This document shows positions 4,956-56,562 of a stretch of 64,000 bases of DNA, one piece after another; positions within the stretch are counted from its first letter, which is position 1, and each line of letters opens with the position of its first letter. The DNA is from a virus: positions 114,430 through 178,429 of IMG/VR virus record IMGVR_UViG_3300012953_000001; one strand, 5' to 3'. The notes beneath the pieces were generated by a model. That model was not told the origin of the DNA. It saw only the letters and a program-made list of their open reading frames with translations, and did no database searches. Both the position numbers and the translations under genes were made by a program.

Positions 4956-5168
4956 TTACTCCTCAGAAGTAAGCTGCATCGCCCTAAAAGCAGACCCACC
5001 TAACGATGGTCCGTCTTTGCCAAACGTATCACTGGTAATATTATCAACCGGCTCTACGGCTTGGGATACTTCCTCAGGAATATATTGTTGGTTGCGTTGG
5101 ATCCCTACGCCGCCCTGAATATTTTCCATCTCATCTCGCATAGCGATGAGAGTTTTTAGATCAAGCAT
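4956..5168 (-). CDS. small hypothetical protein with MRDEMENI leader variant
   Basis: 70 aa in an operon; N-terminus resembles that of 7587..8381. Confidence 0.55.
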   Translation of the reverse strand: MLDLKTLIAMRDEMENIQGGVGIQRNQQYIPEEVSQAVEPVDNITSDTFGKDGPSLGGSAFRAMQLTSEE

Positions 5169-6908: not shown

Positions 6909-7577
6909 CTATCCTCCTATTTTCGTGTTAGGCATTCGAGCAAAACCAATTAACCTAGTTTCTCTATCAAGATCGTGGGTTAATCGTTTTACGTGGGAGG
7001 GAAATCTCCCAACGTTTCCTTCTATTGTTTCTATCACACCGTGCTGATAATTCTCAATAATTCCAATGTGGCCTTGCCAAGACCCAGGCTTTCCTCGATC
7101 CCAGCATACGATATCGCCTGCTGCTGGTATCGTTACCTCAGACCCCGCTTCTTTGATATACTTGTACAGCGCTTTCGCTCCGTGACTAGTTTTGAAGGGA
7201 AGGTCAACGCCGAGACTATCCGCTGCAACCATACAGCAGTAACTAACGAAACTAGCACACCAAGCACCATCATCATCAGGATTGCCGTCGTCAGGAATTC
7301 CTTTATAGCGAGCGATATGCTCCCCAGAGTTGTTACCACCAATTTCACCATTGCCGATCTCCTTGATAGCTGTTTCTAAAGCCATGAGACCGAGATTACT
7401 TGTGGGACCACTATTACCAAACATATCTAATAATAATGACTGCTGGGTTTGTGGGCCGCAGTAACCATCAACAGACAAGCCCTTGCTTTCCTGCCAATGT
7501 TTAACGAGATGCATTATCTGCTCTTGGGTAAACAGCCCAAGCTCGATTTGGTGTTTATTATATGATTCTGCGCTCAT
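6909..7577 (-). CDS. peptidoglycan-binding + CHAP domain lysin
   Basis: WQESKGLSVDGYCGPQT (PG-binding); WCASFVSYC, GHIGII and IEGN (CHAP). Confidence 0.85.
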   Translation of the reverse strand: MSAESYNKHQIELGLFTQEQIMHLVKHWQESKGLSVDGYCGPQTQQSLLLDMFGNSGPTSNLGLMALETAIKEIGNGEIGGNNSGEHIARYKGIPDDGNPDDDGAWCASFVSYCCMVAADSLGVDLPFKTSHGAKALYKYIKEAGSEVTIPAAGDIVCWDRGKPGSWQGHIGIIENYQHGVIETIEGNVGRFPSHVKRLTHDLDRETRLIGFARMPNTKIGG

Positions 7578-7586
7578 ACGTATCCT

Positions 7587-8381
7587 TTAAAAATTCATCC
7601 TGAATAAGTTGCCCTGCCCAGTGGGGCTAAATGGCAATACGCCTGTATTCTTTTGTCCAAAAGGGTTGAACTTTTGTCCAGCCCTAGGGGCTCTTGGAGT
7701 AGCCGGTGGCTTAGCCGGTCTTGTGATGCCTGAATTTGGGTACATGGGCGTTCTCGCCCTCATCAAACTGTTTGGCCCTGCGGCACTAGTCGCATTGGGT
7801 GACGGGGGCGTAGGCATCTTGGGGATCTTCAGCTTTAGCTTCGAGACAAGCGAAAGATTTTTACTCCAAGGGTGGGGTCCAGCCCTTACCGGAGTATGCG
7901 TTGGTCCCGTTGGTCTATTGAGTACGTTTGGTGCTGACTTACCTACCACTCTAGTTGGTTGACTGTATCCCCCAGGGGTAGTCTTGGTCCCAGATAAGGG
8001 TGGGGAAAGCATGGAGCCCTGTAGCAACTCCCCAGGACCACGCATACCAACTGGTTTAGATGAGTCCATGTACCTACTCTGCCTATTAGTAGCTACTGCT
8101 TTTGCTTTTTGGTGCTTAGCTTGGATCTTATTCTGGATCCCTGTCCCTAATGCACCACCCTTACTACCGTAATTGCCTGGAGCTTTAGGCATGTCAAATG
8201 CTTTGCCTCCGGGATGCGGCTTAGGGTTCTTAGTGCCATCCTTTACCACAGGTCTTGGGCGAGCTTTTCTTGGGGAATACGCGACCTTCTCCAACAGACC
8301 GAGGACATAATTGTCCGCAATCTTGGCTACAGCTATTTTTTCAAGCTCATCCCGCATTGACCTAAGAATAGACACGTTCAT
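7587..8381 (-). CDS. basic Pro/Gly/Lys-rich protein with ELEKIA/LEKVA leader
   Basis: 264 aa, low complexity, leader motif present twice. Confidence 0.6.
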   Translation of the reverse strand: MNVSILRSMRDELEKIAVAKIADNYVLGLLEKVAYSPRKARPRPVVKDGTKNPKPHPGGKAFDMPKAPGNYGSKGGALGTGIQNKIQAKHQKAKAVATNRQSRYMDSSKPVGMRGPGELLQGSMLSPPLSGTKTTPGGYSQPTRVVGKSAPNVLNRPTGPTHTPVRAGPHPWSKNLSLVSKLKLKIPKMPTPPSPNATSAAGPNSLMRARTPMYPNSGITRPAKPPATPRAPRAGQKFNPFGQKNTGVLPFSPTGQGNLFRMNF

Positions 8382-8386
8382 TGCAA

Positions 8387-9304
8387 TTAACCCTTTTGCA
8401 TTTTTCGGGCTAATTCAAGCAGTTTATCCTGAACACCCTTCTTACCGCCCAACTCACCACGAGTGCTTAGTGGAACCGAGATAGACCCGTCTCGCTTCAT
8501 ACGGTCAATCGCTTTATCTCCAAAGCGCTTTCTCCAAGCCTTCTCCATTGCGGGAGACAGCTTCGAAGCCGATGTGTCTGGCATAAAGAACGCGCCCATT
8601 GGGTTTCTTTTGCCTCGCTTCGGTTGCATATTAATAATGTCTTTCGCCCCCATCATCTTATGCAGTCTTCGTCTACCAAAGAAGCCAAGGGTTGGAGTAT
8701 CTTTAATGCCCTTCTTCAAGGCTGATACGGCTAACATCTGTGGCCCCATCCCCACTAATTTTGCCTTGAGCATCGGGCTCAACGTGGACTCGCCCTTTCT
8801 AGCAGCCTTAGCCCCCAACGCAGCGGCAGCAACATTACCAGAAGCCCCAGAGAGATAAGTCGTGTAAGCCCACAACAGATCCCTTCGCGCCTTCTTGTAT
8901 GTTTTTGGTGCAATACCTTTGAGCTTCTTTAGAGCCTTAAGTCCATGGTACGTGGCCAAGAATTCTTCTGCCAGTCTGGGTGCTTCCCCTGCGGCTTGAA
9001 CTGCGCCATCTTGAACCATGTGTTTTCGTAGTTCTTTCTTACTTGGGGCCTTTCCAACGCCACGAGAATACCGACGATACTTGTTAATTAGTTGAGAGAC
9101 CCCTGGGCCTGCTCCATAACCAAGCATCCGAAGCTTTCGAACAGTTTTGCTTGAGCCTCTTAACGTCTTTGCATGCCCAAGCTCATGTGCAAGGATAGAT
9201 GCAGGCGCTCTATGAGGAGTGCCTTTTCGTACAAGAGTCTCTAGCCCTCTACCCATCATCTGTTTTAGTGCGCTCTTCGCAGCATACTTCTCTAATGCGT
9301 TCAT
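8387..9304 (-). CDS. basic HExxH zinc-metallopeptidase-like protein with LEKYA leader
   Basis: LAHELGHA plus distal EEFLA and AYTTY, the layout of YugP-like neutral Zn peptidases. Confidence 0.6.
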   Translation of the reverse strand: MNALEKYAAKSALKQMMGRGLETLVRKGTPHRAPASILAHELGHAKTLRGSSKTVRKLRMLGYGAGPGVSQLINKYRRYSRGVGKAPSKKELRKHMVQDGAVQAAGEAPRLAEEFLATYHGLKALKKLKGIAPKTYKKARRDLLWAYTTYLSGASGNVAAAALGAKAARKGESTLSPMLKAKLVGMGPQMLAVSALKKGIKDTPTLGFFGRRRLHKMMGAKDIINMQPKRGKRNPMGAFFMPDTSASKLSPAMEKAWRKRFGDKAIDRMKRDGSISVPLSTRGELGGKKGVQDKLLELARKMQKG

Positions 9305-9852
9305 TAAAATGTCCCCTGTATATTACCGGTAAAGTAGGGTTTTCGTTGGTTCCGACCTGCTCCTACTGGCAACCGCGCCCCAATATTACCACGAATATTC
9401 TTTGATAATCTTCCGCCCCAACCCATGTTTAAGGTGCTTGGTCGTCCACCCGACAAGGTGGTCCCAACGCTAAGTGGACCGGCTTTCACGCCTAAGTTAG
9501 TCATAGACTTCTTCGGCATTACATCTCGCCAAGTCATTCCGACCGGCGCTCCGCTTCTGGCTAAACTTCGATTGATAGAGAGACGCTGCAAGTTATCAGT
9601 TGCGCCCTGACCCCTAGCCATAATGCCTTGTAATCCCTTAGTAGGTCTTTCCATTTTGCTAAGAGAGGTCATCGGGTTGCTTGAATGAGAAGCTGTCACC
9701 TTAACGGGTGACTTAGAGTACGCCTTGCCAATCCCAGAAAGGGTGGCCCCAACAGACGAACTAACTGTTGGCTTAGCCAAAATCTTCTTAGCTATCTCGG
9801 CTAACTTGGTAGTTAGCTTTCGCTTGGACGCGTATTTCTCTAAGGCGTTCAC
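9304..9852 (-). CDS. basic protein with LEKYA leader
   Basis: Probable GTG start at 9852, just after the upstream stop, giving MNALEKYASKRKL. Confidence 0.6.
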   Translation of the reverse strand: MNALEKYASKRKLTTKLAEIAKKILAKPTVSSSVGATLSGIGKAYSKSPVKVTASHSSNPMTSLSKMERPTKGLQGIMARGQGATDNLQRLSINRSLARSGAPVGMTWRDVMPKKSMTNLGVKAGPLSVGTTLSGGRPSTLNMGWGGRLSKNIRGNIGARLPVGAGRNQRKPYFTGNIQGTF

Positions 9853-9854
9853 GG

Positions 9855-10487
9855 TTATGACCCCTTTACCCATTTCTGGTTGTCTTTGTCTTTCGTCTTG
9901 CTTGGGCTCCACTTGACCTTATCCGCCCAATAAGCCGCACTCAAACGACCCTTGGAAATGTTCTTGCCGTGGCGGGACTTAAACGCCTTGCGTTGACCAG
10001 CGGTCTGGTTGGTCTTCACGCCCTGCTGCCCAAAGCGGATAGTCTTTACTTGGTCACCCTCTTTAGCAACAACGATGTGAGACTTAGTAGGGTGATTAGG
10101 TGTGCGCTTAGGCTTGTTGTAGCCAGAAACACCAGCACGTTCTAGCCGTGGGTCTCTCGAAGCGGCAATCTTAGCCCAAGCCTTCTTGGTCTTCTCGTCT
10201 TTAGGGACCACTCTCTCACCCTTATGCACACGAGCGTATGGCTTGCCCTTCTTGTCGGTCAAATAGCCATCCTTCTTCACGGGTCCGCCCTTGGAATAAC
10301 CAGCTAGTCCGCTACCCTTCATCATCCGTTGGGTGAAATTGGAGTTCCCCATCATGGCGATTTTCAGCTTGTCACTGACAGCCTGAAGACGTTCGGCTTG
10401 ACTTTTATGCATCTTGGAAGCCCCGTGAAGTTCCTTAACAATCTTCTTGAGCTTCTTCTTAGCGGCATATTTCTCTAGCGATCTCAT
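9855..10487 (-). CDS. basic protein with LEKYA leader and conserved phage C-terminal domain
   Basis: ATG at 10487 in an ATGA overlap; the IRFGQQG..RKAFKSRH..SAAYWA domain is widespread in phages, function unknown. Confidence 0.65.
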   Translation of the reverse strand: MRSLEKYAAKKKLKKIVKELHGASKMHKSQAERLQAVSDKLKIAMMGNSNFTQRMMKGSGLAGYSKGGPVKKDGYLTDKKGKPYARVHKGERVVPKDEKTKKAWAKIAASRDPRLERAGVSGYNKPKRTPNHPTKSHIVVAKEGDQVKTIRFGQQGVKTNQTAGQRKAFKSRHGKNISKGRLSAAYWADKVKWSPSKTKDKDNQKWVKGS

Positions 10488-11635
10488 ATAGACCACCGGT
10501 CATTCTTTAGGCCTTCCTTCGTTCTCGGCGTAAGGTTTTGCCTATTGATCTGGGGTGTTGGGTAATACTCTCGGTATGGCATGGTTCCTCCGGAAGGAGT
10601 AGTCTTGCCAGTCTTACCGCCTAATCCGCCTTTGGCTTTAGGAGATTTGAGGAAAGCGCCCTTTGCTGCCTTAAGCCTATCGGTGAGACGGTTCTTGTCC
10701 CATGCTTTTTTGGCTTCCCAGCCCAGTACCCCTCCAGCAGCAGCGATTGCTGGTTTAGAGTTAACAAGCCTTGCAGCCATGCCACCCATTCTTCCGTAGT
10801 TTCTTCCAGCACGAGCAGCGAAAGTAGCCCCTCTGTTACCCCAAGTGGTAACAGGTGCTTTGATCCCAGTGCGTCCTCGCTTGAATCCCTCTTGCAAGCC
10901 TTTGCCAGCAGCCTGGGGGATTTGGCGGAGTCCAGTGGCCCCTGAGCGAACAGCAGCCTTTAGTCCTCTCCCTAATAAAGCCAAGTTTGCTGTCTTCACA
11001 GCGTCAACGCTCCCAGCCTTGCTCAACATAGTTAAGTAGGATCCTCCACGGACTTGCGAAGGGGGCGTAGGCGGCTTTATTGTTTTCGCCGCCGCGCTCA
11101 ATGCCCCAGATTGCGCCTTATGTATCCAGCTACTCTTAACCTTTATTGGTTTGCCTGTGGTGTCAGGTTGTCCATTGCTTCCTTTAGGTAATTTGTATGC
11201 ACCATAAGAGGACGCTTGCAGCGTGAGCGGGTGACCGCCCTGGGCGATTTTGCGTAATGCTGAATTTAGTTTCACTTTAGCTCCTGGAAAGACTGCGTCT
11301 TTGACCGGGTTTGGGTGCTCCCAGACCCTCTTCAGGGTTTTCTGGTAGCGCCCTTCTGGTTTTCTTGGTGTAGAGGATATTCCGCCACCACCTTTCATAA
11401 TATCCAGGTAACTTCCCCCACGCGCCTGCCCACGTTGCGCACCACCGCTGCTCCCTTTGGAAGCTGAGGCTACCGCCCTACTTAAGATCTTTGACGTGTC
11501 TTTTGTCTCTGGGTACTTCATTGGAGCGCCAGAGTACGGGTCTAACCCTGACTGCCTAAAAATTTCGAAGTCAGACTTGGCTAGCTTCTCAAAAGCATCG
11601 TTAATATATGCTAAGTAATACTGCTTAGTACTCAT
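10484..11635 (-). CDS. basic Gly/Lys-rich protein with AFEKLA leader
   Basis: 383 aa, strong AGGAGG SD, internal RGGSYL repeat (x2). Confidence 0.65.
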   Translation of the reverse strand: MSTKQYYLAYINDAFEKLAKSDFEIFRQSGLDPYSGAPMKYPETKDTSKILSRAVASASKGSSGGAQRGQARGGSYLDIMKGGGGISSTPRKPEGRYQKTLKRVWEHPNPVKDAVFPGAKVKLNSALRKIAQGGHPLTLQASSYGAYKLPKGSNGQPDTTGKPIKVKSSWIHKAQSGALSAAAKTIKPPTPPSQVRGGSYLTMLSKAGSVDAVKTANLALLGRGLKAAVRSGATGLRQIPQAAGKGLQEGFKRGRTGIKAPVTTWGNRGATFAARAGRNYGRMGGMAARLVNSKPAIAAAGGVLGWEAKKAWDKNRLTDRLKAAKGAFLKSPKAKGGLGGKTGKTTPSGGTMPYREYYPTPQINRQNLTPRTKEGLKNDRWSI

Positions 11636-12073: not shown

Positions 12074-15000
12074 TTAATTCTGTCCGGGCGGCTTCCAAGC
12101 CTTCAATTTGTCTGCCAATCCACTGAGTGCTGTTAAGACGCCCTGCACTGCTTCTTGGGCTCCTGCGCCTCCACCACCTCGGCCAGAAGTAGGATTAAGC
12201 GGAGCGAGGTTCGTTGATAGTCTTGTAATAAGCTGTTCACGCTTGGCCTTATCTCCGGCAGAGCCCGAGACAAGATCTTTACTCAGCCCTTCGACCTCCT
12301 CCTCTGTAGCAGTCTTGCCAGACTTGCGGAAGATATCCCTCGCGGTCTCATTTAGCATACTCTCCAGTCTAGTGGTTAGTTCGCCTTTACCAGAAGAGGG
12401 ATCTTTTAAGTACGCTTGTTCTTGCTTAGTCAGCTTATTGAATTTGGGGTTGTGCGAGATTGAGGACAAGAACTTCATGGGAGAGTCTTTCGCCTCTTCC
12501 CACTGTTTCGTGTAATAACGAACGTTTGCGCCAACAACTGCCGCTCTACCTGTAAAGGCTGTACCACCCTTAGCCAACGAAGTAATTGCCCGATCTTTAC
12601 CCTCATCGGTCATGTCATCGCCTAGGAACATCCCGGCGACTTTTTTCATTGCCTCGTTTTCATGGTCTTTAATCTTGAAGCCTGACGATGGATCGTAGCT
12701 TCCCTGACCTTTATTAAACTCCTCAAGGTGCTTAGAAAAAGCATTCTTGCTGGCGTACCCACCAGCCATCGCTGCCATTCTAGAGCCTGAGGTGGCTTGG
12801 ATTGACTCATCACCAAGAGCTTTTGTACGACCACCCAAGTAGCCGATGAGCTTTTTGCCCTCTTCACTGTCCTTGACCAGGGTGTCAAAGTTGGTTCCTT
12901 GGCCCCACCCGGCCTGCGCCAAAGACTTATTGGCACCCGTGTGAAGCATCAGTTTGTCATTGAGCGCACCGGGCTCTTTCATTTTATCAATAAAGTCGCC
13001 TGCGGTCATCTGGTCACCGGACCCAAATGCGCCACCAGTCTTAGCTAACGCTGCACTAAACCCTGGGACAGAACGAAACTCATCTATGTAGGAAGACCTC
13101 TGCGAAGTAGTAAGTTGGCCTCTAGCTCTATCCGCTTTTAACCTAGAAAGAATGCCCTGATACGGAGAACCCTCCGCGCCAGATAGTGTTCTATGAATTT
13201 CTGATAATACCGCGTTGTCTGTTTCTTGAGTGCCGGTGCCCCCGTAAGGGCTTTGCAAGCCTGAGCTGTTCATGCTCAACGCTTTAGCTGTGGGTGTGCT
13301 TGAGGCCCTGACTAGTTTTGTTATCTCTTCATGCGGGGCCAACCCATCCCCCTGCTTAAAGTCAGGATTCTTCATGTTTGTGAGATGCTTTGAGAGCGTC
13401 CCCTCATCTACCCCAAGTGTCGTAGACAGTCTTGATAAGGAATCACCAGACTGGTGCCCCAAAAGTTGCTCAGCAATTCGTTTTCCTTGATCGCCACCCT
13501 TACCCAAAAGAGCTGTGATGTGAGCACCTGTTCTGTGTCCAAGCATTGTTGTTGTTCTGTCCCGAGCAGACTCAGGGTCCATTCGATATTGAGCAGATGC
13601 CTGGAATCGTTTCTTGAGGCTTCCTTGGAACATCCCTTTTCCGGACATGTATTGGTAAGCCTGGGAACTGTTCGCACCGGTCTTCTCCATGAAGACCTTC
13701 ATTCTTCTCTCATCAGATACATTGCCCAGGGCAGCGATATCACCTGCCACGCTCGTGAGCCGTTGCTCTCCCCCTAAGGCATCTATCATAGCTGAGTGGT
13801 CTCCACCCATACCCGCTATGAGTTCATGGATTTTTTTCTGTCCTCCAGAGGTCAGGAATCCCTGCGTTCCACCATAGCCTTTGCCCCCATCTTCAAAGGT
13901 TCCGCCCAGTGGGGTAAGTCCTAATGCTTGAGCGGCCTCTGCATCAAGACCACCAACTGCTCCACCAACCTTGTGCCTCTCAGTGATGCTATCACCCAAA
14001 ACACCTACACCTTGAAGTGATTCAATTAGTCTTGCGTTATTACCAGTAATGGCTCCTGCGGAAATTCCCGACATCCCATACTGACGCATAGCTTCAGGAG
14101 CTTGGTTGGTTATCGCATCGTAAGCCATGAGTGGTACACCTACTGCCCCCAATGCACCGCCACCCATTCGTCCTAAGAATCCACCAACTCGTAAAGCACC
14201 ACCACCAAGTCTAGCTGTGCCACCAACTAGTCCGTGGCCACCCATGCCCATAAAACCAGAACCGCTACCACCAAAGAGACCAGTGTAACCAGAAGGGCCA
14301 CCGCCAGTTATGCGTTGACCAATGTTACTCATCACCGCACCGGTAGCGCCAAAGATATTTCGGCCACCGCCAAAACCTCTAAACGCTGACGCAAATGCGA
14401 GCCCTGTTTGTCCAGGCTGATATTGTTCCAACCCTAGACCGCCCATGGGGAGTTCACTAAATTGGGTGCCCCCTCCTAATCCAGGAAGTTGGAATCCCAT
14501 TGGTGTGAAGTCTCTTGCGAACTGCCCAGCCCAGGTAGTTGGGTTGGGGCGTCCACCAAGTTGCATGCCTGCTTGACCGCCAATTGCTTGGGTTAGTCTG
14601 TTGCTCCATTGATTAAGAGCACTAGTATTACCTGTCCAAGATAAGTTCTGAATCTGGCTAGACCATCCTCGACCTTCTGTTCTAGAGAATGCTCCCGAGC
14701 CACCTTGCCCGGTCAATTGCGTGTTAACATCCTGCACGGCATCTTGGTAATATTGAGTCATGCTTGCGCCGAGTTTTTGGAACTGCTGGCGCACCGGCTT
14801 GGTCAATTCACTAACAGCCTTGCTCATGATATCGGTGATGCCCATCATCCCACCGCTACCTTCTTTGAACCCGGCTCTCGCTTCTTCAAGCATCTTCTGT
14901 CGGAGTGGTCCGGTACTACTAGACAACATCTCCATTGCTCGATGGTCGTTTCGGGTCAGCCCGGTCATCTGTCTAATCATTGACTCGGGCGAACTGCTCC

Positions 15001-16234
15001 GGTTGGCCAAGCTTCGGAGAGGAGAGGCGATGGCTTGGGGTCCGAACTCAGAAATAAACTGCCCAGCTAACTCACCCCCTCGTGCGTTAAGCATGTCACG
15101 GGCCCCGGCCCCTTGAATGTTCTGGTTGTACAGTCCCTGAATTTGTTTCCAGGAGTACCCACCACCAGCAATTCGACCAGCAATGTCAGAGTCGAACTCT
15201 CCTGTGGGGGTCATCATCGCCCCTAAAACTGTTCTACCGTTCCTAGACCCTAGGAATCTCGTAGCTGCTCCTGTATATCTACCCTGCGCTGCACCAGTGA
15301 TACCTTTAATGAGGTTATTACGTTCCGTATACCCATAGACACCTGCACTAACCATAGCCCCGGTAGCTGCTTGTCCCATATCAATGCCAGCGGCTTGTCC
15401 GAAGTTAGCTCCTGCTTGTGCTACTCCCATCATGCCAGCAGGAGAGATATTTGATGCTTGTCCAATTCCCTTCATGGTTCCTAAGAACCCAGCAGCCTGA
15501 TCTCCTGTTATCCCCATACCACTAACAGACTGCATTGCCTGTTGTGCTTGTTGTAATGAGGTATTCATCACAGTGGCTACTTGACGAACGTTGCTCATTA
15601 ATTTGTTAAAGGACTGGGAAAATTGTGTGAGTGTACTTGTGTCAATCGCTCCGCTATGAACACCTTGTTGCATTACAGAGGTAATCTCGCGAAGATTCCC
15701 CATACCCATACGAGCTTGCGACTCTACTTGAGCAGACATCATGCCTAGCCCTTGAGAGTTCATGCCCGGGAACATCTGTCCCATTTGGGAATTAAGCATC
15801 CCGCGATTTTGTGCACCCGCAACCATGTGGTTGGTAGCCCAACTACCCATGGCACCCATACCCATGTATGCGCCCATTGCTGCGCCACCCATTCCGATGG
15901 CACCTGCTAATCCTTGTCGGGCGAATCCTTGACCACCCATATGCATGGACATGGTAAACGGGTCGAGTTGTCGTGGACCGAAACCGAACATGGACATCAT
16001 GCCCAGTCCGCCCATAGCCATACCCGGCATACGAGCCATCCCACCGCCTACACTACCGGCATGAAGACCCATCTGTGCTTGGTGGGTAGACTGTCTTGGG
16101 TCATTTACACCCATTCCACCATGACTCTGGTAACCGTACTGCGCGGAAACCGCATGAGCATACGCGGCTGAGGCACTAAACATCCCTACCTGGGACTGAA
16201 TAATGCCGCTGATCTCGGTACTACTAATTGGCAT
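12074..16234 (-). CDS. tail tape measure-like protein
   Basis: 1386 aa, Gly/Ala/Met/Gln-rich and helical, upstream of tail/baseplate genes. Confidence 0.65.
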   Translation of the reverse strand: MPISSTEISGIIQSQVGMFSASAAYAHAVSAQYGYQSHGGMGVNDPRQSTHQAQMGLHAGSVGGGMARMPGMAMGGLGMMSMFGFGPRQLDPFTMSMHMGGQGFARQGLAGAIGMGGAAMGAYMGMGAMGSWATNHMVAGAQNRGMLNSQMGQMFPGMNSQGLGMMSAQVESQARMGMGNLREITSVMQQGVHSGAIDTSTLTQFSQSFNKLMSNVRQVATVMNTSLQQAQQAMQSVSGMGITGDQAAGFLGTMKGIGQASNISPAGMMGVAQAGANFGQAAGIDMGQAATGAMVSAGVYGYTERNNLIKGITGAAQGRYTGAATRFLGSRNGRTVLGAMMTPTGEFDSDIAGRIAGGGYSWKQIQGLYNQNIQGAGARDMLNARGGELAGQFISEFGPQAIASPLRSLANRSSSPESMIRQMTGLTRNDHRAMEMLSSSTGPLRQKMLEEARAGFKEGSGGMMGITDIMSKAVSELTKPVRQQFQKLGASMTQYYQDAVQDVNTQLTGQGGSGAFSRTEGRGWSSQIQNLSWTGNTSALNQWSNRLTQAIGGQAGMQLGGRPNPTTWAGQFARDFTPMGFQLPGLGGGTQFSELPMGGLGLEQYQPGQTGLAFASAFRGFGGGRNIFGATGAVMSNIGQRITGGGPSGYTGLFGGSGSGFMGMGGHGLVGGTARLGGGALRVGGFLGRMGGGALGAVGVPLMAYDAITNQAPEAMRQYGMSGISAGAITGNNARLIESLQGVGVLGDSITERHKVGGAVGGLDAEAAQALGLTPLGGTFEDGGKGYGGTQGFLTSGGQKKIHELIAGMGGDHSAMIDALGGEQRLTSVAGDIAALGNVSDERRMKVFMEKTGANSSQAYQYMSGKGMFQGSLKKRFQASAQYRMDPESARDRTTTMLGHRTGAHITALLGKGGDQGKRIAEQLLGHQSGDSLSRLSTTLGVDEGTLSKHLTNMKNPDFKQGDGLAPHEEITKLVRASSTPTAKALSMNSSGLQSPYGGTGTQETDNAVLSEIHRTLSGAEGSPYQGILSRLKADRARGQLTTSQRSSYIDEFRSVPGFSAALAKTGGAFGSGDQMTAGDFIDKMKEPGALNDKLMLHTGANKSLAQAGWGQGTNFDTLVKDSEEGKKLIGYLGGRTKALGDESIQATSGSRMAAMAGGYASKNAFSKHLEEFNKGQGSYDPSSGFKIKDHENEAMKKVAGMFLGDDMTDEGKDRAITSLAKGGTAFTGRAAVVGANVRYYTKQWEEAKDSPMKFLSSISHNPKFNKLTKQEQAYLKDPSSGKGELTTRLESMLNETARDIFRKSGKTATEEEVEGLSKDLVSGSAGDKAKREQLITRLSTNLAPLNPTSGRGGGGAGAQEAVQGVLTALSGLADKLKAWKPPGQN

Positions 16235-25345: not shown

Positions 25346-25609
25346 ATGAATAAACCTATTAAATTCTCCACCTTCAAGATGATTGTGGACCTTAATGCGC
25401 TGCTATTATTTTCGGTGATACCTACTGTCGTCCTGCTACCTTTCTTTGGCTTTTCGTCAGGGACAACTTATGGAGTGGCGCTTGGTGGAGTCTTCTTACT
25501 CACGCTAATGAGTGATGAAGACTTCCGTATTGGGTATCAAGAAGGCGTTGAAGAGGAATACGAAGCCTATCTTGAGGAGGAGCAAGAAGCTCAGCCTAGT
25601 TCTGAATAG
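25346..25609 (+). CDS. small membrane protein with acidic tail
   Basis: AAGGAGG SD, two TM helices. Confidence 0.6.
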   Translation: MNKPIKFSTFKMIVDLNALLLFSVIPTVVLLPFFGFSSGTTYGVALGGVFLLTLMSDEDFRIGYQEGVEEEYEAYLEEEQEAQPSSE

Positions 25610-25631
25610 AAATGCTTACCTTCGCGGTAAG

Positions 25632-25706
25632 AAGTGGCGTCCCTTACAGGGGCGCTACTTTTTTACCTAAAAGAAAAGCGGGGCAACCAATAAAGGCTAC
25701 CCCGCT
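25632..25706. terminator. back-to-back intrinsic terminators for convergent genes
   Basis: Plus hairpin 25632-25660 with T tract; minus hairpin GCGGGG/CCCCGC at 25678-25705 preceded by AAAA. Confidence 0.7.
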
Positions 25707-25730
25707 AATCTTGGTTAGTGTGTGGGTTAC

Positions 25731-25799
25731 TTAGCTACAGCAGCATGACTCACTGCAACAAGGTTTCTCACACGCACATTTACAACAATCCTTATCCAT
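25731..25799 (-). CDS. 22-aa metallothionein-like peptide
   Basis: MDKDCCKCACEKPCCSESCCCS (9 Cys); AAGGAGG SD; followed by a terminator; below the ORF-track cutoff. Confidence 0.7.
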   Translation of the reverse strand: MDKDCCKCACEKPCCSESCCCS

Positions 25800-25815
25800 A
25801 ATCCCTCCTTAGTTA

Positions 25816-27483
25816 CTATCCAACAATGACCCAGCCTCTACCGGCACCAACGTAAACAAGCATCACAGAAGCCATTTTGAAATCGAGGGTAAGGTGTGGC
25901 TTACCTTCAACATGGAATCCCTGTGGATCTACGATTCGAACCTTGGCGTTCTCGGCAAGCCCGGTAGCCTTAACAGTGATTGCCATACCAATCAGGTCAT
26001 GACACCCGTTAGGATCCCCAAACATTCCACCTTCTTCGGCCTCACCGATAGTGGGCGTTGGGGGTGGTGTAACACTTTCGCCGCCACCCTCAGACAAGTG
26101 GCCTTCATACTCCGCCATCGCTGCTTTGTACTTATCCATTTCCGAATTGCTGAAGCTGAAACGTCCGAACTCATACATTGGGTGCCCCTCTGCGGGCAGA
26201 GTCAACGTAAAGGTTTCATCCTTACCAAGCTCATTAATGAGGAAGTTAGTACAAAAGCAGTCAGGACCCTCAAAGCTAATGTAGTGCCCACTCTCTTCAC
26301 CTGTGGTTTCTAAGATCTTCCAAGCATACAGCTGCTTACGCAGATGCTCATGGAGAAGACCTAACTCCATCCTCGCTGAAGAAACTTCCGACGAAGCGTA
26401 CTGTCGAAGATTCGAACTCATCTGTGGAAGAACTGAGTCGTAAAGATTGTCCCCAAACTCATTCTGCGCTTCGACGATCCCATCAATAGAGGCGGTGAAG
26501 GAGTCCTCCATTAGCTGATCAGCATTCTTATACCCCGCTTCGATATCAGCAACCGCACTATCGTTTTGGTTCTTGTAGCTGTTGAAATCAGACAGGTGCT
26601 GCTGAGCATCTTTACGATGCGAGTCTACCGTATCCCCAAGCGCACGAATCGCGCCCTCGTTGGCAACGATAGCCTCGCTCAGATCTTTATTGAAGTTCTC
26701 AATAATCGCCTGAAGACGACTCTCAGTGCTAGATAGCTCATCGGTAATCCTCTTACCAAGTAGCTCGTCCGCCGCAAGGCGAGCGTTTCTTTCACCAGCA
26801 ACAGCAGCTACACGAAGATTCCTCTCAGCGACAACAGCCTCTGAAGCTTCTGCTCGATCCGCTGCTCTCTCAGCGTCATAAGTCTCTTTCTGGACAACTG
26901 CGGCCCCAAGAAACTTAGCGACAGGAACAAACACACCTTGATCGTTTTTGATCTCGATCTGGTCTAGCTCGTCATTGTAGACACAAGTGCCCTCGCCACC
27001 ATCTTCGAACTCCCAAGAAGGAGTGCCCATCTCGTCAAGTCCAGTGATCCAGGCAATCTGGCCTTCTCTATTGTAAAGAGGGTCGCCCTCTTCGACAGCA
27101 GGGTCTGTCTTGACGATGAAGCGAGCACCTTCTTGAAGATCCTCTGGTGCAAGGTCAGCAGACTTACCTACCTGCCTTTTAACAGCATCTCGCCAAGTAA
27201 CCTGTAGGCTGGCAAGCTGTGCTCTAAGGCCAGCAGCCTCCTTCTCCAAGTTCTCAGCGAGAGTCTCGAATGCAGCTTCTGCGGCCTCTCTGACAGCGTC
27301 GTCGCCTGACTCAATAGCGGCCTGAAGCTCAGCTTTCTGATTCTCAAGATCAGATAGGATGCTCGCAACTGAGTTAGCATACTTACTATCTATTGCACCA
27401 AGCTCTGTCTGGTTGACCAACTGACCAACCTGACGTGCTGCGTGTTCAATAAGCTCCCACGCGGGTCTAATATTATGTGACAT
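25816..27483 (-). CDS. acidic coiled-coil protein with phage structural-type C-terminal domain
   Basis: 555 aa, long heptad regions; C-terminal LTLD..ASVMLVYV..GW motif seen in phage fibre/structural proteins. Confidence 0.55.
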   Translation of the reverse strand: MSHNIRPAWELIEHAARQVGQLVNQTELGAIDSKYANSVASILSDLENQKAELQAAIESGDDAVREAAEAAFETLAENLEKEAAGLRAQLASLQVTWRDAVKRQVGKSADLAPEDLQEGARFIVKTDPAVEEGDPLYNREGQIAWITGLDEMGTPSWEFEDGGEGTCVYNDELDQIEIKNDQGVFVPVAKFLGAAVVQKETYDAERAADRAEASEAVVAERNLRVAAVAGERNARLAADELLGKRITDELSSTESRLQAIIENFNKDLSEAIVANEGAIRALGDTVDSHRKDAQQHLSDFNSYKNQNDSAVADIEAGYKNADQLMEDSFTASIDGIVEAQNEFGDNLYDSVLPQMSSNLRQYASSEVSSARMELGLLHEHLRKQLYAWKILETTGEESGHYISFEGPDCFCTNFLINELGKDETFTLTLPAEGHPMYEFGRFSFSNSEMDKYKAAMAEYEGHLSEGGGESVTPPPTPTIGEAEEGGMFGDPNGCHDLIGMAITVKATGLAENAKVRIVDPQGFHVEGKPHLTLDFKMASVMLVYVGAGRGWVIVG

Positions 27484-29695: not shown

Positions 29696-30674
29696 AGCCA
29701 TCACTCAAAACTAACTTAGCTTTTATGCGTTTAAGTAGATCCGGTAAGAGCTTCTCTGCGGCCTCCACACCTGCCTTGTAGAAGGCAATTGCTTCCGAGT
29801 GTTCATAGTGGAACTGCGTAGTGTAGTCTGCCCACTTATCTGGTGCGGGGGCGTACACAATCTCCAAGTCCAGACCCGCGTCATAAACATCCTCAATGTC
29901 TTCATGAACATTAGAGGTGATAGCCGCCATGCAACCGCGAGCTACAATCTTATGGAACGGCTCTTTCTCCACCCCAGGATTATGTCCAGGGCTTGGATCA
30001 TCTAGAATGATACCGATGATCAAGGGATTCCTCTTTTTAAGCTCAGGCACACCCAACACAAAATCTGCTGGGAAGTACGAGGCCAGTCCTCCATCCACCA
30101 ACATGTCTTTCCCAAAACGATGTTCATCAGGGAAGACATCCTTGATGTAGTCTGGGTAGTCATTCTCGTCAAAGGGGAAGGGGGTGAAAACCGCAGGTAT
30201 GCAGCAACTGCCAATACAAAACTTCTTCCAAGCTTCTGGAGACATGTCTTGGAGATTGCACACGACTTCCTTACCTTGGGTGAGGGAGAAGGCGTTCACA
30301 TAACAAGGCTTACTCAAGGGCTTGGGAAAGAAGTTCGGCTTATTGATGGCTTTCTTAAAAACTTTGGGAGAGCTTATAATCCCGCCATCCTTTAGCATGT
30401 AGTACACGTGGCTTATCACGCGACAAATGCTCCCGCCGATCCTGGCGTGGCGAGACAAGTTATCCTTCTTATCAAAGATAGTAAGCTCTTTGAAGTCCAC
30501 GTCGGAGGCAAGCCATGCGCTAACGATTGCCCCCGCAGAGTCCCCTGCATAAGCAGCGATCTCAATACCCTCATCCTCCAGCGCCTTCTTGATTACACCA
30601 GCAACCGCGCTCAGGTAAGGAAGCCTGCCTCCAGCACCACTCAAGACTAAACAGGTAGGTCTATCACTCAGCAT
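29694..30674 (-). CDS. patatin-like phospholipase
   Basis: SGAGGR, GDSAG (GxSxG) and DGG catalytic motifs. Confidence 0.85.
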   Translation of the reverse strand: MLSDRPTCLVLSGAGGRLPYLSAVAGVIKKALEDEGIEIAAYAGDSAGAIVSAWLASDVDFKELTIFDKKDNLSRHARIGGSICRVISHVYYMLKDGGIISSPKVFKKAINKPNFFPKPLSKPCYVNAFSLTQGKEVVCNLQDMSPEAWKKFCIGSCCIPAVFTPFPFDENDYPDYIKDVFPDEHRFGKDMLVDGGLASYFPADFVLGVPELKKRNPLIIGIILDDPSPGHNPGVEKEPFHKIVARGCMAAITSNVHEDIEDVYDAGLDLEIVYAPAPDKWADYTTQFHYEHSEAIAFYKAGVEAAEKLLPDLLKRIKAKLVLSDG

Positions 30675-30906
30675 CGTCCACTATCCGCAAGTTCCATGGC
30701 CAGTACCACGTCGAAATACCATCGGGGGTTTTAACATATACACGGTAAGCAAGATTATACAGATAACCACACAAGTCTGTAACAACAAACTGTTCGCCAA
30801 GAAAGTCGCCCTGAGTCACCTCAACAAGCTGCCCCACCTTGGGGTGAGAAACATCTACGCCCGAAAATCTTCCGGGGTACTTCCTAAGCTTGCGGTAATC
30901 AGCCAT
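30664..30906 (-). CDS. small KOW-like hypothetical protein
   Basis: VGQLVEVTQGDFLG pattern. Confidence 0.5.
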   Translation of the reverse strand: MADYRKLRKYPGRFSGVDVSHPKVGQLVEVTQGDFLGEQFVVTDLCGYLYNLAYRVYVKTPDGISTWYWPWNLRIVDDAE

Positions 30907-30969
30907 CCAAAACTCCTACATACAGTTGTATCAACTATATGTATTAGCGAGGAAGGCTCTAAAGTATTA

Positions 30970-31257
30970 CTAACTAATTTTCGAACGAACTTCTAGGATA
31001 TGGACTTCTGCGATTGCCAACCTTTCTCTAAAGTTATCCTGCTCTGCCATGGCCTCTTTTAGAAGGCTCTGTTGCATAACAATCATCTCTTTAAGGTTGG
31101 CAGTTTGCTCCTCGGCGCGAACGGCAGTAGCTCTCAGTTCACCAGCTAGTCCCTGTATCTTGGTCGAAAGAAACCAAATCGCAGGGATAATGGAGGCGGT
31201 TACACTGAGCACAATAGAAAGAATCTGCGCCCAATCAGATGTTCCAGACATATTCAC
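30970..31257 (-). CDS. membrane-anchored coiled-coil protein (holin-like, unproven)
   Basis: N-terminal TM helix plus heptads. Confidence 0.5.
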   Translation of the reverse strand: MNMSGTSDWAQILSIVLSVTASIIPAIWFLSTKIQGLAGELRATAVRAEEQTANLKEMIVMQQSLLKEAMAEQDNFRERLAIAEVHILEVRSKIS

Positions 31258-31313
31258 CTCTCATGCTAATTCCTAAGAGGCGACGACGCCCCGATCTTCT
31301 TACCCTATTATAA

Positions 31314-31754
31314 CTAACCTTGTTGCTCTGACGAAGTCGCAGAATTTTCTTTTTCCTCATTTTCAGCCATCGCCGCTTCTTGTGCTGCGCTGTACTTATC
31401 GGCTTCTTCTTTAACCTGCCAGAATGTAAGCAAGTCTTCGTTTTTCATCAAGCCTTCTTGCGCAGCCATGAATTTAGGCCAATCCATGATCTCTTTGTCA
31501 AAGCAAATCTTAAACAAAGAAAACAAATGCGTCTCTAAGCGATTGATCGCCTGACCCGCCATCTGGTAGCCCCTGAGAAGCTCGCTGATGTAGCGCTCCG
31601 CAATGACCAAGCGCTCCTCAGCAGACTGCTCTTGCTGTGCTGGGGGAAGCCCAACAAACTCCGGTGGGAGCGGACTCCTATTTGCTTGATTTACTTCCTC
31701 TGGACTTCCTGGGTGTGGATTTCCGGACTGGTGATTTACGTTTTGGTTTTCCAT
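31314..31754 (-). CDS. hypothetical protein
   Basis: 146 aa, GGAGG SD. Confidence 0.6.
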   Translation of the reverse strand: MENQNVNHQSGNPHPGSPEEVNQANRSPLPPEFVGLPPAQQEQSAEERLVIAERYISELLRGYQMAGQAINRLETHLFSLFKICFDKEIMDWPKFMAAQEGLMKNEDLLTFWQVKEEADKYSAAQEAAMAENEEKENSATSSEQQG

Positions 31755-32016
31755 CTGTTGCCTCCATCGCGTTTAGCGATTTTAATGCGCCTTCTTCTGA
31801 AGACTTTAGTTTTTGTATTTCGCCCAATATGCATTCAATTGCCTCATAAGAGACTGTTGAATCAAGGCATCTAACTTCGTCACTTACCATCAATGTCTCG
31901 GGCGCACCGCCCGTATCGTTTGGGAGGTAGTCGCCAAGGTACACCTCAATGTCGCTGTATACCTCTAACTTATGTTGGGATAGTGTTATCCTAGCTAATA
32001 CCTCTTCAATCTTCAT
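31678..32016 (-). CDS. hypothetical protein
   Basis: 112 aa, TAATG coupling. Confidence 0.6.
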   Translation of the reverse strand: MKIEEVLARITLSQHKLEVYSDIEVYLGDYLPNDTGGAPETLMVSDEVRCLDSTVSYEAIECILGEIQKLKSSEEGALKSLNAMEATDGKPKRKSPVRKSTPRKSRGSKSSK

Positions 32017-55003: not shown

Positions 55004-55528
55004 ATGACGAACGGTATTCAGTACTATATTAATAGTTATCGAGATCGTATCCAGGTTGGTGACATCCTAGATATGCAACACATTGTTGTTCCCATCAAAA
55101 CTGGCGGGAGAATCTACGGTGCGATCAGCCAACAATTTATGAAGAGATACCCGGGTTTCAAAATCCCAGTACTCGATCTTTGTCAGGCAGAAATGGTGGT
55201 TATCGACAAAGAGAAACAGACCACTGCCACCTTTATCGCTTATTGGAGCGATGAATCGGAGTACACCCAAAACCACATGGCTTTGGCTGCAACGCGTTCA
55301 TTGTCGGTGGCTAGCCGAACAGCGCAAAAACTCCAAGAAGACTGGGACGGAGAAATTGAGCAGTGGCAACTGGCCATGCCGATGTTCCGTGGTGCTGAGG
55401 AGTCTGCGGCTAATATCGCAGCGATAGAAGCGGAACTTCAAGAGTGCTACGATGTTTTGTGCAACTGCGGTATCCCACCTTGTGAGGTAGATATTGTGGT
55501 GCGTAACGCAGAGTTCGTTCCTGTTTAG
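55004..55528 (+). CDS. macrodomain-like protein (divergent)
   Basis: GDILD..IVVP...GRIYGAISQQF..RYP resembles the macrodomain N-terminus. Confidence 0.4.
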   Translation: MTNGIQYYINSYRDRIQVGDILDMQHIVVPIKTGGRIYGAISQQFMKRYPGFKIPVLDLCQAEMVVIDKEKQTTATFIAYWSDESEYTQNHMALAATRSLSVASRTAQKLQEDWDGEIEQWQLAMPMFRGAEESAANIAAIEAELQECYDVLCNCGIPPCEVDIVVRNAEFVPV

Positions 55529-56562
55529 TAGGGCGCTCTGAGGTTCTTTAAAAACTGCTGCTGAAGACGTGAGTCCGTAATCGGGTTTGCAGAAGACCAC
55601 CAACTAAAGTTCCTGGGCAACCTGCCTGCCGTTCTTCGGATCTTCTCAAACATCTCTGGTGTGGCATCACGAATAGTTTGGCCCTTTGTTAACATCCCAC
55701 GACTGAGCATGTTCTGTTCTAGCTGCGCGGCTCTAAGGGCCTCTTGCTGCATACCAGTGCTTGCCCAGTTCATCCCATGGTCTTTGGTCTGGCTTATCAA
55801 TGTGGGTAAATTCTTTCTTCGATGGGAAGCCAGAATGGCGTGGTCCCCAGCCCTTAGCTGGTAGGGGCCCGCTGTTCTGGCTATCGAGTAATCGAACGCA
55901 CCATGATTAATGTTAGGGGCATCTCTAAGAATACGCCCTTCCTGGTGAAGTTTCCCCAGGTTCGCGTGGATACCTTCTGCGTTGTCTCCCCTAAACCACA
56001 TCTTAGAGACCTGCTTTTTGTTGGGGTTCGAGCCTAGAGAGCGCGACCACTCTAACCCAGGCTGTCCCCGATGCCAGTAGACATCGGCCAACCCTGGCCG
56101 AGTGTACTGTGCTCTATTTCCAGTGCTTGGGGATATCTTCCCAGATCTAAGGATATCGTCCATGGCCGCTAGACCCCCGCCAGAAGCGGAGTCGTGGGTT
56201 AAGAAGCCCTTTGAGTGTGCTCTCGCCGCAGGTTGTCCGTGCCCATATAGTTTGCCTGTCTGCATGGCAACATGCTCTCCTATACCTTTACGGTACCCAG
56301 ACACGAGAGAGTTAAACTGTTTCACGGCATCTTCAGGCCTAACCAGACCCTGGAGTTGCGAAGGAACCCTGCTCTTGGTAATTATCGCAGGTGCTTGTGG
56401 TGTCTTTGTAGCCTGGGAAACGGTCTTCAAGGCACTGGAGGGTAACTTAATCCGTGGCGCAGCCTTTGCTCCCACAGCCGCCAGCCTAGCAAGGCTAAAT
56501 GCGGCCTCTTTTTCCAGGGTGTTGTGGAAACACTTTTTATATGCACTAACAAAATCAGTCAT
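55525..56562 (-). CDS. basic protein with LEKEA leader and ART-fold-like segment
   Basis: FHNTLEKEAA; TH......DILRSGKISPS..G..DVYW. Confidence 0.5.
   Translation of the reverse strand: MTDFVSAYKKCFHNTLEKEAAFSLARLAAVGAKAAPRIKLPSSALKTVSQATKTPQAPAIITKSRVPSQLQGLVRPEDAVKQFNSLVSGYRKGIGEHVAMQTGKLYGHGQPAARAHSKGFLTHDSASGGGLAAMDDILRSGKISPSTGNRAQYTRPGLADVYWHRGQPGLEWSRSLGSNPNKKQVSKMWFRGDNAEGIHANLGKLHQEGRILRDAPNINHGAFDYSIARTAGPYQLRAGDHAILASHRRKNLPTLISQTKDHGMNWASTGMQQEALRAAQLEQNMLSRGMLTKGQTIRDATPEMFEKIRRTAGRLPRNFSWWSSANPITDSRLQQQFLKNLRAPY

Follow-up and report, generated by a model that had tools for sequence, protein, structure and literature searches.

The window, i.e., the whole analyzed stretch of 64,000 nucleotides, belongs to the complete 178-kb genome of an uncultured marine phage. 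The five genes considered here, P1–P5, are all minus-strand genes at the positions given by the first-pass annotation. They occupy the tail section of the operon, with a tape-measure-like gene on one side and the baseplate hub on the other, away from the head genes. The tagged genes form a hypervariable island flanked by conserved tail and hub genes. Its upstream border is the gene of a 1386-aa Gly/Met-rich, tape-measure-like protein (12074..16234, minus strand; the gene-order counterpart in Salmonella phage Arash is gp4), and an untagged backbone gene within the island (6909..7577, minus strand), encoding a CHAP hydrolase and peptidoglycan-binding protein, is kept in the related genomes G001, G002, and G004. 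The comparison included the related genomes G001–G004; the major capsid proteins are 81–91% identical among relatives. Cultured relatives are Arash and Vibrio phages D69/D148/D181, while the clade is very large, with more than 1,300 protease homologues, and almost wholly uncultured. Phages of this group, marine and enteric, have genomes of about 180 kb and encode their own RNA polymerase; in Arash, 80% of coding sequences are annotated as hypothetical.

P2, P3, and P4 start with M/V-N-A-L-E-K-Y-A-A/S-K or M-R-S-L-E-K-Y-A-A-K, so that the shared N-terminal leader noticed earlier on three consecutive genes is confirmed, and it proves commoner than first stated. P2 (8387..9304, minus; 305 aa, pI 10.9) has the strict leader M-N-A-L-E-K-Y-A-A-K, with LEKYA at 9281–9295, minus, and a helical body. 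P3 (9304..9852, minus; 182 aa, GTG start, pI 11.7) also has the strict leader (LEKYA at 9829–9843, minus) and a second K-x-A, T-K-L-A, at residues 16–19; its orthologue in G001 is 37% identical. P4 (9855..10487, minus; 210 aa) is a three-module mini-polyprotein, the other four proteins being single-module or low-complexity. Here, the leader LEKYA (10464–10478, minus) is followed by a helix; KLKIA (10356–10370, minus) by a small beta module; and WAKIA (10164–10178, minus) precedes the 100-aa "DPRL" domain (9858–10154, minus), a widespread phage domain.

The outer two genes carry variants. P1 (7587..8381, minus; 264 aa, pI 11.3, net charge +33) has a Pro/Lys-rich body after a leader of a second type at residues 9–34, retained in relatives in G002 and G003; its LEKIA (residues 13–17; 8331–8345, minus) and LEKVA (residues 30–34; 8280–8294, minus) enclose a conserved helix (8280..8345, minus). 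P5 (10484..11635, minus; 383 aa, pI 10.6, net charge +47) has a looser motif, FEKLA, at residues 15–19 (11579–11593, minus) before a Gly/Ala/Lys-rich body; Pfam and PHROG scans gave no family match for it, its Atlas model has pLDDT 0.43, and an Atlas search found nothing. Both variants had been correctly read from the sequence.

Two types of leader are seen. Type A reads M-N-A-L-E-K-Y-A-A-K-(K/R)-x-L-x-x-x-L, often with a second K-x-A 10–14 residues on; type B reads R-D-E-L-E-K-I-A...L-E-K-V-A. Seven strict copies are present in the 178-kb genome, and the leader has about 31 copies across five genomes. Strict leaders number 7, 9, 2, 4, and 2 per genome among the relatives, the last genome being only 67% complete. 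The pattern [LMFIV]EK.A is found 33 times genome-wide, compared to 4.5 ± 2.0 expected for residue-shuffled proteins, and 24 times within the first 45 residues, compared to 0.9 expected. It is not as common outside virion genes, being carried by 16 of the 74 structural-operon genes vs. three of the 114 others (Fisher p = 3e-5), and an N-terminal K-x-A is present in 17 of the 24 proteins whose pI exceeds 10. The conserved region spans about 17 residues, vs. five for the site itself: among 37 matches to the leader, of which about 31 are unique, the residues N(−4), A(−3), Y(+1), A(+3), K(+4), L(+7), and L(+11), counted from the Lys, are each present in 26–35. The leader is also found internally in proteins, so that an N-terminal position is not required, and such internal copies make small polyproteins. 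The second K-x-A is absent after about half of the leaders, in which case the mature protein would retain part of the leader.

The codons of the leader copies had been reported to differ at synonymous sites. Indeed, in 14 copies of the identical decapeptide from five related genomes the entropy is 0.91 bit at third positions vs. 0.07 at positions 1 and 2, which shows selection on the peptide. An element acting as nucleic acid (a conserved region for translation initiation, a site bound by a regulator, or a hot spot of recombination at gene 5′ ends) could explain why the leader spans the start codon and follows a Shine–Dalgarno-like G-run; it is contradicted by the near-saturated third positions and by the unconserved DNA upstream of the 14 copies, and we regard it as barely credible. 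Once the leader is taken off, BLASTP finds no significant similarity among the bodies (best E = 0.003, from a low-complexity stretch); all are strongly basic, pI 10–12. The earlier view of a modular tag, selected at the peptide level on unrelated carriers, is supported, and the tag is not the product of recent whole-gene duplication.

The conserved core of the leader, [L/M/F]-x-K-x-A followed mostly by A/S/G, recurs in head proteins. In the capsid protein, which shares 27% identity with Arash MCP gp226, residues 22–31 read G-K-E-K-I-A-A-L-G-G, are invariant in five relatives, and align with L-V-K-E-A-G-A-A of Arash and L-T-K-E-A-G-A-A of Vibrio phage D181. The prohead maturation protease, encoded beyond the window at 25605–27290 of the genome, was recognized by PHROG 18299 "head maturation protease" (E = 1.8e-9), with no Pfam match and no PDB sequence match. 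It has K-x-A sites at residues 29–31, 229–231 (directly after the catalytic domain), and 483–485; in the alignment of 107 homologues with identity down to about 44%, K29 and A31 are kept in all 107, K229 and A231 in 105, and K483 in 101. Acidic scaffold-like proteins contain three to five K-x-A sites each, at conserved positions, and their counterparts in Arash and D181 contain 5–10. The K-x-A-rich class of Arash (gp220–226, gp218, gp242, sigma gp10) is present in its virion proteome, a permissive set that comprises 116 of 252 proteins, metabolic enzymes included, and holds no peptide-level N-termini (PMC10585845). BLASTP of the five window proteins against Arash gave no homologue, and they are therefore outside the coverage of the Arash virion mass spectrometry.

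The first-pass annotation had placed the cut after Glu, at a phiKZ-type S/A/G-x-E site, and a protease of the T4/phiKZ type could be assigned to A-L-E, S-L-E, and A-F-E. A/S-L-E and G-x-E do precede the Lys at many sites in the genome, and A-X-E is a proven motif in SPN3US (PMC10052503); the removed tag would then be only five residues long. However, the corresponding sites do not retain Glu: those of the protease itself read L-V/T-K and M-A-K, those of Arash and D181 read L-V-K, I-V-K, L-T-K, and L-L-K, while the Lys and the Ala two positions after it never vary, and boundaries of orthologues and domains fall after K-x-A, not after Glu. Cutting after Glu is thus very improbable.

K-x-A is located exactly at module junctions, where the homology of orthologues begins and where the 100-residue domain has been captured. 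In the G001 orthologue of P4, the leader is fused directly at the point of K-L-K-I-A in P4; homologues of P4 contain these modules in other orders, as many as four per protein, and every joint has a K-x-A. Where the "DPRL" domain stands alone, it begins with M-x-K-D-P-R-L, and tagged copies have K-x-[A/S] 3–5 residues upstream. Similarly, the type-B homology between P1 and a G003 protein stops at the second K-x-A, the bodies beyond being unrelated in G002/G003. This coincidence with module borders suggests cutting rather than membrane binding, and so bears on a further explanation, in which the leader, a helix at the N-terminus in the structure models, would be amphipathic and serve a destination other than the head, its likeness to a head-protease site being incidental. 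The tagged proteins might then belong to the tail lumen or the baseplate and be loaded along with the tape-measure protein, as suggested by the position of the five genes, which have the tape-measure-like gene and the baseplate hub on their two sides and the CHAP hydrolase adjoining; or cationic membrane-active or lysis-associated proteins, as suggested by two further tagged genes (genome 8757–9660) that adjoin small hydrophobic proteins. We consider this improbable, as the five-residue core does not vary in the capsid protein or in the flanks of the protease itself, tagged genes are scattered over the head, neck, and tail blocks of the genome, and the scan of 17 tagged proteins for transmembrane-like segments yielded a single weak one.

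The reading that we favor, with somewhat better than even confidence, is that the leader is a cleavable propeptide of head-internal basic proteins, similar to the capsid targeting sequence (CTS) of T4, and that the K-x-A core is the site of the phage's own protease. The T4 CTS is present on the internal proteins IPI, IPII, IPIII, and Alt, from which gp21, the prohead protease, removes it (PMC3012670; Mullaney and Black, 1996, as cited in PMC10052503). As the leader contains a probable head-protease cutting site, it probably acts like this head-packing tag, in agreement with the tag logic proposed from the sequence at the outset. In both systems a peptide of about 10 residues stands at the N-terminus of otherwise unrelated proteins; it ends at a head-protease motif (here, a putative one) that also occurs in capsid and core proteins; and the cargo is basic and differs strongly from one relative to the next. 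In contrast to T4, the leader has an unrelated sequence, with K-x-A as the predicted site instead of (L/I)-x-E; it often has two sites and is also internal, which results in mini-polyproteins; the tagged genes are grouped between tail genes; and loading and cutting are here predicted.

On this CTS-like reading, the leaders would assign to the head interior at least 17 very basic, mostly low-complexity late proteins (pI 10–12, net charge +15 to +51). The prohead maturation protease would recognize [L/M/F]-x-K-x-A in the N-terminal propeptide. The tagged proteins would co-assemble with the scaffold or core; the protease would trim the leader and split fused modules at internal K-x-A sites, presumably after Ala; and the mature basic proteins would remain with the packaged DNA and probably exit with it at infection. 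Cleavage, the cut after Ala, head location, loading function, and ejection are all what we infer.

Since the conservation over about 17 residues extends far beyond the five-residue site, the leader probably doubles, by analogy with the T4 CTS, as an address bringing the protein into the prohead. Otherwise, K-x-A would be a protease site and the extended leader a cut-site cassette lacking address function, packaging being due to the basic bodies, through binding to acidic scaffold or DNA, or to other contacts; the 17-residue conservation would then reflect a helix context required by the protease, or one cassette spread by recombination. The internal leaders, the many head proteins with bare K-x-A sites outside the MNALEKY context, and the strongly basic bodies next to acidic scaffold-like proteins agree with such a cassette. 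Nevertheless, positions on both sides of the five-residue core are kept in about 31 copies even though synonymous sites are saturated, each of the two leader types is conserved while the bodies change, and several core head proteins start with similar M-N-E-L/F-E-K/N peptides, so that we find an address-free cassette unlikely, if worth serious attention. More tentatively, at somewhat less than even confidence, we propose that M-N-A-L-E-K-Y-A-A-K with its helix is a portable and sufficient head-loading address, that the Lys-x-Ala protease is assemblin-like, and that cargo is acquired by cassette exchange: any gene landing behind a K-x-A leader would become virion cargo, and neighboring cassettes would fuse or split as polyproteins via loss or gain of stop codons.

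The release and maturation sites of herpesvirus assemblin are (V/L/I)-x-A|S. The phage site resembles them in the Ala at the putative P1, followed by Ser/Ala/Gly, and in the layout of the precursor, which has one site immediately behind the catalytic domain and another close to the C-terminal end of a long scaffold-like tail; it differs in the invariant Lys at P3, and no sequence or Pfam link was found between the phage protease and peptidase S21. The prohead proteases of phiKZ and SPN3US (gp175/gp245) also serve large myoviruses that package an RNA polymerase and many internal proteins, and remove N-terminal propeptides and cut at several sites; but there, the motif is A-X-E, cut after Glu, and the propeptides are mostly 111–254 residues long with no common short tag (PMC10052503). 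Polyvalent proteins of phages and conjugative elements, encoded near packaging genes, contain 2 to 15 distinct domains (Iyer et al., 2017; PMC5512222). Similarly to the tagged proteins, they string together unrelated modules, some enzymatic (HExxH metallopeptidase-like), and are predicted to be packaged and delivered; however, the units here are small, mostly single genes, mostly with low-complexity basic bodies, and the joints are K-x-A of the head-protease type, whereas polyvalent proteins are cut by a resident zincin (PMC5512222).

If the CTS-like reading holds, K-x-A plus the leader would provide a simple sequence rule for predicting head-packaged, processed proteins in a large and abundant phage group, would extend the capsid-targeting principle of T4 to a second, unrelated sequence code, and would define a Lys-x-Ala head-protease specificity not found in the literature searched. 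It would also explain how foreign domains, the very widespread 100-residue "DPRL" among them, are recruited as virion cargo, and supply a short tag with which proteins could be loaded into phage heads.

Enzyme-like bodies had been suggested for two of the proteins. In P2, the HExxH signature (9173–9187) is followed by downstream Glu residues, and H40, E41, H44, E107, E113, and E114 are invariant in nine homologues; thus, the HExxH...E signature of the proposed peptidase is conserved, but no zincin fold was recognizable: the similarity to Pfam Zn_peptidase_2 (E = 0.042) is below the family cut-off, and the AF2 model (pLDDT 78) had no Foldseek match in PDB at E ≤ 0.001 (best E = 0.34) and matched generic helical bundles only in VIA-align (Z ≤ 7.5). 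The proposed ART-like segment was not confirmed, as no ART family was seen in the five proteins at E ≤ 0.1 (Pfam) or E ≤ 0.01 (PHROGs), though a remote relationship may exist. The term "effector cargo" fits weakly, given the HExxH...E body and the widespread phage domain, as most bodies are basic and low-complexity.

Two further proteins of the window had been listed as carrying variants of the tag. The distant one (55525..56562, minus; 345 aa, pI 10.5) does have LEKEA at residues 16–20 (56503–56517, minus); it has no orthologue in G001–G004 and is possibly an extra cargo gene beyond the virion operons. The other, an acidic protein of 70 aa (4956..5168, minus), shares the first half of the type-B leader, M-R-D-E-M-E-N-I, but its peptide MRDEMENIQ has no K-x-A, and it is probably not a protease substrate; its counterpart in G001 has gained an MNALEKHA leader.

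Five minus-strand genes of the window (P1–P5: 7587–8381, 8387–9304, 9304–9852, 9855–10487, and 10484–11635) encode basic proteins with the short N-terminal peptides reported in the first-pass annotation: P2, P3, and P4 start with M/V-N-A-L-E-K-Y-A-A/S-K or M-R-S-L-E-K-Y-A-A-K, P1 carries LEKIA and LEKVA, P5 carries FEKLA, and LEKEA is indeed present in the gene at 55525–56562. The phenomenon is far larger than could be seen at that stage. The strict leader, M-N-A-L-E-K-Y-A-A-K, has seven copies in the genome; the pattern [LMFIV]-E-K-x-A is observed 33 times against 4.5 expected under residue shuffling, and 24 times against 0.9 within the first 45 residues. The motif is not equally common elsewhere, being present in 16 of 74 structural-operon genes and 3 of the 114 others (p = 3e-5). 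Among proteins with pI > 10, 17 of 24 have an N-terminal K-x-A, the core of the leader; the tagged bodies have a net charge of +15 to +51 and, in total, one weak transmembrane-like segment.

With leaders removed, mutual similarity of the bodies is not significant, which rules out recent gene duplication as the source of the tag. The identical decapeptide is encoded by 14 copies across five related genomes, with near-saturated third codon positions (0.91 bit vs. 0.07 bit at positions 1 and 2); this synonymous-site variation rules out an RNA or DNA element, and the only common feature of the DNA upstream of the leader copies is a Shine–Dalgarno-like G-run. One open frame (genome 17865–18446, minus strand; L001:9865–10446 in the locus of this genome) contains a complete leader at residue 1 and another at residue 58, the latter (genome 18275) preceded by its own G-rich Shine–Dalgarno-like sequence. 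The frame is either a fused cassette pair cut apart by the protease or a case of internal start. The same layout recurs in the related genome G001 (99548–100156) and in P0004 and P0008, homologues of P2.

The window is the final 64 kb of one 178,429-bp contig (window coordinate = genome coordinate − 114,429), whose ends share a repeat of ~124 bp, hence a complete phage genome. Virion genes occupy two minus-strand blocks, roughly genome 8.7–53.7 kb and 70.7–131.1 kb. The capsid protein (genome 21616–22821) shares 27% identity with its counterpart in Salmonella phage Arash (gp226, the major capsid protein), with further matches in the Vibrio phages D69, D148, and D181; the head maturation protease is encoded at genome 25605–27290 (minus strand, L001:17605–19290; PHROG 18299, E = 1.8e-9); the large terminase gene occupies 30210–31853. 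Gene calls are crude, and the capsid gene was added by hand. A degenerate DNA pattern retrieved the exact leader from about ten IMG/VR contigs, three of them complete 173–181-kb genomes; capsid proteins of these leader-bearing relatives are 81–91% identical to that of this phage. Strict leaders number 7, 9, 2, 4, and 2 per genome, the last count coming from a contig only 67% complete. The phage collection searched with the region and one neighbouring gene, at both DNA and protein level, gave no match, and no relatives of the adjacent 138-aa protein were found in the viral contigs.

The first-pass annotation placed cleavage after Glu, as in phiKZ; comparative data favour K-x-A, with no Glu before Lys in the aligned capsid sites of Arash and D181. 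Near its N-terminus the capsid protein contains G-K-E-K-I-A-A-L-G-G, which is invariant in five relatives and aligned to L-V-K-E-A-G-A-A in Arash and L-T-K-E-A-G-A-A in D181. The protease has sites L-V-K-V-A-S at 29, M-A-K-V-A-S at 229, directly after the catalytic domain (about residues 32–228), and L-T-K-T-A-K at 483. From 1,342 database hits, 107 homologues were aligned, the most distant at about 44% identity: every one has K29 and A31, 105 have K229 and A231, and 101 have K483; Leu, Met, or Phe stands two residues ahead of Lys, and mostly Ser, Ala, or Gly follows Ala. Self-release sites of head proteases are arranged in a similar way, in particular those for release and maturation in herpesvirus assemblin, an enzyme that cuts between Ala and Ser in (V/L/I)-x-A-S. 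Acidic scaffold-like proteins have three to five K-x-A sites at conserved positions; five are found in a 332-aa protein and eight or nine in a 663-aa protein, while the equivalent Arash proteins (gp220, gp223, gp225, and gp242) have five to seven each, and one D181 scaffold-like protein has ten. At the level of sequence comparison, these data point to a cut at K-x-A, not after Glu. A search of the protease sequence against PDB chains yielded no match, and complex prediction for protease residues 1–250 with P4 residues 1–60 (score 0.01) gave no verdict and counts neither way.

Several of the protease homologues P0180, P0197, P0209, P0223, and P0245–P0249 are 740–950 aa long; the long ones carry either intein/homing-endonuclease families (PF14528, PF05203, PF13403) or PF18823, and the source record of one bearing PF18823 names it an inorganic pyrophosphatase. 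The catalytic domain has three invariant cysteines (Cys170, Cys173, and Cys184), a possible metal site. A giant 2,579-aa structural protein (genome 70681–78420, minus strand, outside the window), matched to Arash gp229 on size and name alone, with no hit in BLAST, starts with M-S-Y-K-Y-F-G-K-L-A-G; its K-x-A is kept in the relative G003 and replaced by R-L-A or K-L-V in G001, G002, and G004, which makes processing of this protein doubtful.

K-x-A also recurs at module borders. P4 consists of the leader, a helix, K-L-K-I-A, a small beta module, W-A-K-I-A, and a 100-residue domain starting with D-P-R-L; in its G001 orthologue the leader is fused straight to the beta module exactly at the position of K-L-K-I-A, and in other P4 homologues the module order is changed, with K-x-A at every joint. 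The basic D-P-R-L domain (window 9858–10154, minus strand, ~100 residues) recurs in 1,644 database homologues, many with 80–95% identity over the aligned domain (about 40–50% of the query), in very different contexts, both fusions and free-standing proteins of about 115–135 aa. The shortest free-standing proteins start with M-x-K-D-P-R-L, and tagged versions have K-x-[A/S] 3–5 residues upstream of the domain, so that a cut after K-x-[A/S] would restore a nearly native N-terminus. Similarity of P1 to G002 and G003 proteins is limited to the two-motif leader and ends at the second K-x-A. Two longer homologues in the P2 family have an additional N-terminal module, followed by an internal leader that is complete; one of these, the metagenomic P0008, starts with M-P-F-K-S-Q-A-Q-R-R-F-L-Y-A, apparently a second, different N-terminal peptide that may also occur on other phage proteins.

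Conservation of the leader extends to both sides of K-x-A, with the consensus M-N-A-L-E-K-Y-A-A-K-(R/K)-x-L-x-x-x-L (37 matches, of which about 31 are unique). In roughly half of the copies, the first Lys is followed 10–14 residues later by another K-x-A. The leader-specific positions are variable at the generic sites in scaffold, protease, and capsid. In AF2 models of P2 and P4 the leader begins a long N-terminal helix, and several conserved head-module proteins open with related peptides, for example M-N-E-L-E-K-Q-A-A-K and M-N-E-F-E-N-Y (M-N-E-L-E-K-Y in G003). Conservation in excess of the K-x-A site is the main, indirect argument that the leader may act as an address like the T4 capsid targeting sequence.

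Two of the three domain identities proposed earlier, the HExxH peptidase and the ART-like segment, were unconfirmed; the conserved phage domain is present at the C-terminus of P4. In P2, HExxH and three Glu residues are invariant among nine homologues; the Pfam hit is sub-threshold, and comparison of the model with PDB (Foldseek, VIA-align wide) gave no zincin, only generic helical bundles. P1, P3, and P5 are low-complexity and basic. No ART family was found by Pfam and PHROG scans of P1–P5 or by an ESM Atlas search with P5, which gave no usable lead. For the five bodies and another ten tagged proteins, Pfam and PHROG returned little beyond CHAP, a DnaJ domain, and PHROG 7595/220 (the P4 C-terminal domain). 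The latter, modelled at pLDDT above 90, matches PHROG 220, “minor head protein and DNA pilot”; the P4 model has no match in PDB, and its BFVD matches are limited to uncharacterised phage proteins, including ORF125 of Vibrio phage ICP1 and some that bear the labels ChaB or XkdF. The high conservation of the D-P-R-L domain suggests a conserved host target.

Between the genes for the 1386-aa tape-measure-like and 1201-aa hub proteins, the relatives keep a backbone of 138-aa, CHAP hydrolase, 60-aa, 620-aa, and 149-aa proteins; the tagged basic genes amid it mostly have no orthologues, and G003 has its P2 orthologue at another genomic position, with a different leader and K-x-A retained. Such turnover would be expected of exchangeable cargo. 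The five tagged genes are located in the tail part of the operon, as would suit proteins of the tail lumen or membrane; that role is unlikely, because the tagged proteins share the core with the capsid protein and protease. The Arash virion proteome, which lists 116 of 252 proteins with annotation only and no peptide-level evidence on the mature capsid N-terminus, includes the K-x-A-rich gp218, gp220–226, and gp242, and sigma gp10 (PMC10585845); in BLASTP of all genome proteins against Arash virion-module proteins, the five window proteins had no homologue. The initial proposal of a modular tag similar to the T4 capsid targeting sequence appears right in kind; its cut site was probably wrong, and enzyme cargo was overstated. 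The concept is known from T4; new relative to the literature searched are the sequence code, the putative Lys-x-Ala specificity, the two-site leaders, the apparent polyprotein behaviour, and the clade size.

A 70-aa acidic protein (window 4956–5168, minus strand) starts with M-R-D-E-M-E-N-I, which it shares with the first half of the type-B leader of P1 (R-D-E-L-E-K-I-A...L-E-K-V-A), and lacks K-x-A; in its apparent G001 counterpart, assigned by the M-R-E-E-M-E motif with no BLAST hit, M-N-A-L-E-K-H-A is added in front, which looks like the gain of a leader. Outside the window, in a non-structural region (genome 65133–65414, plus strand), a 93-aa protein has E-A-I-E-K-V-A-S-G at about residue 28, kept in G001–G004; it may act as a decoy or substrate for the protease, encoded away from the virion operons. 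L-E-K-R-A-S at residue 8 of a 144-aa acidic non-structural protein (window 39769–40203, plus strand) is probably a chance match; the G002 orthologue lacks it. In D181, a very basic 151-aa protein starting with ...T-L-L-E-K-I-A-A-K-S-K-K is encoded among neck genes (L064:25685–26140 in the D181 locus, plus strand), and the head proteins have the same K-x-A density as here. D148 and D69 also carry a basic 151-aa protein of this kind (...L-L-E-K-I-A-A-K-S-K-K). The cultured phage D181 provides a practical system for testing the tag.
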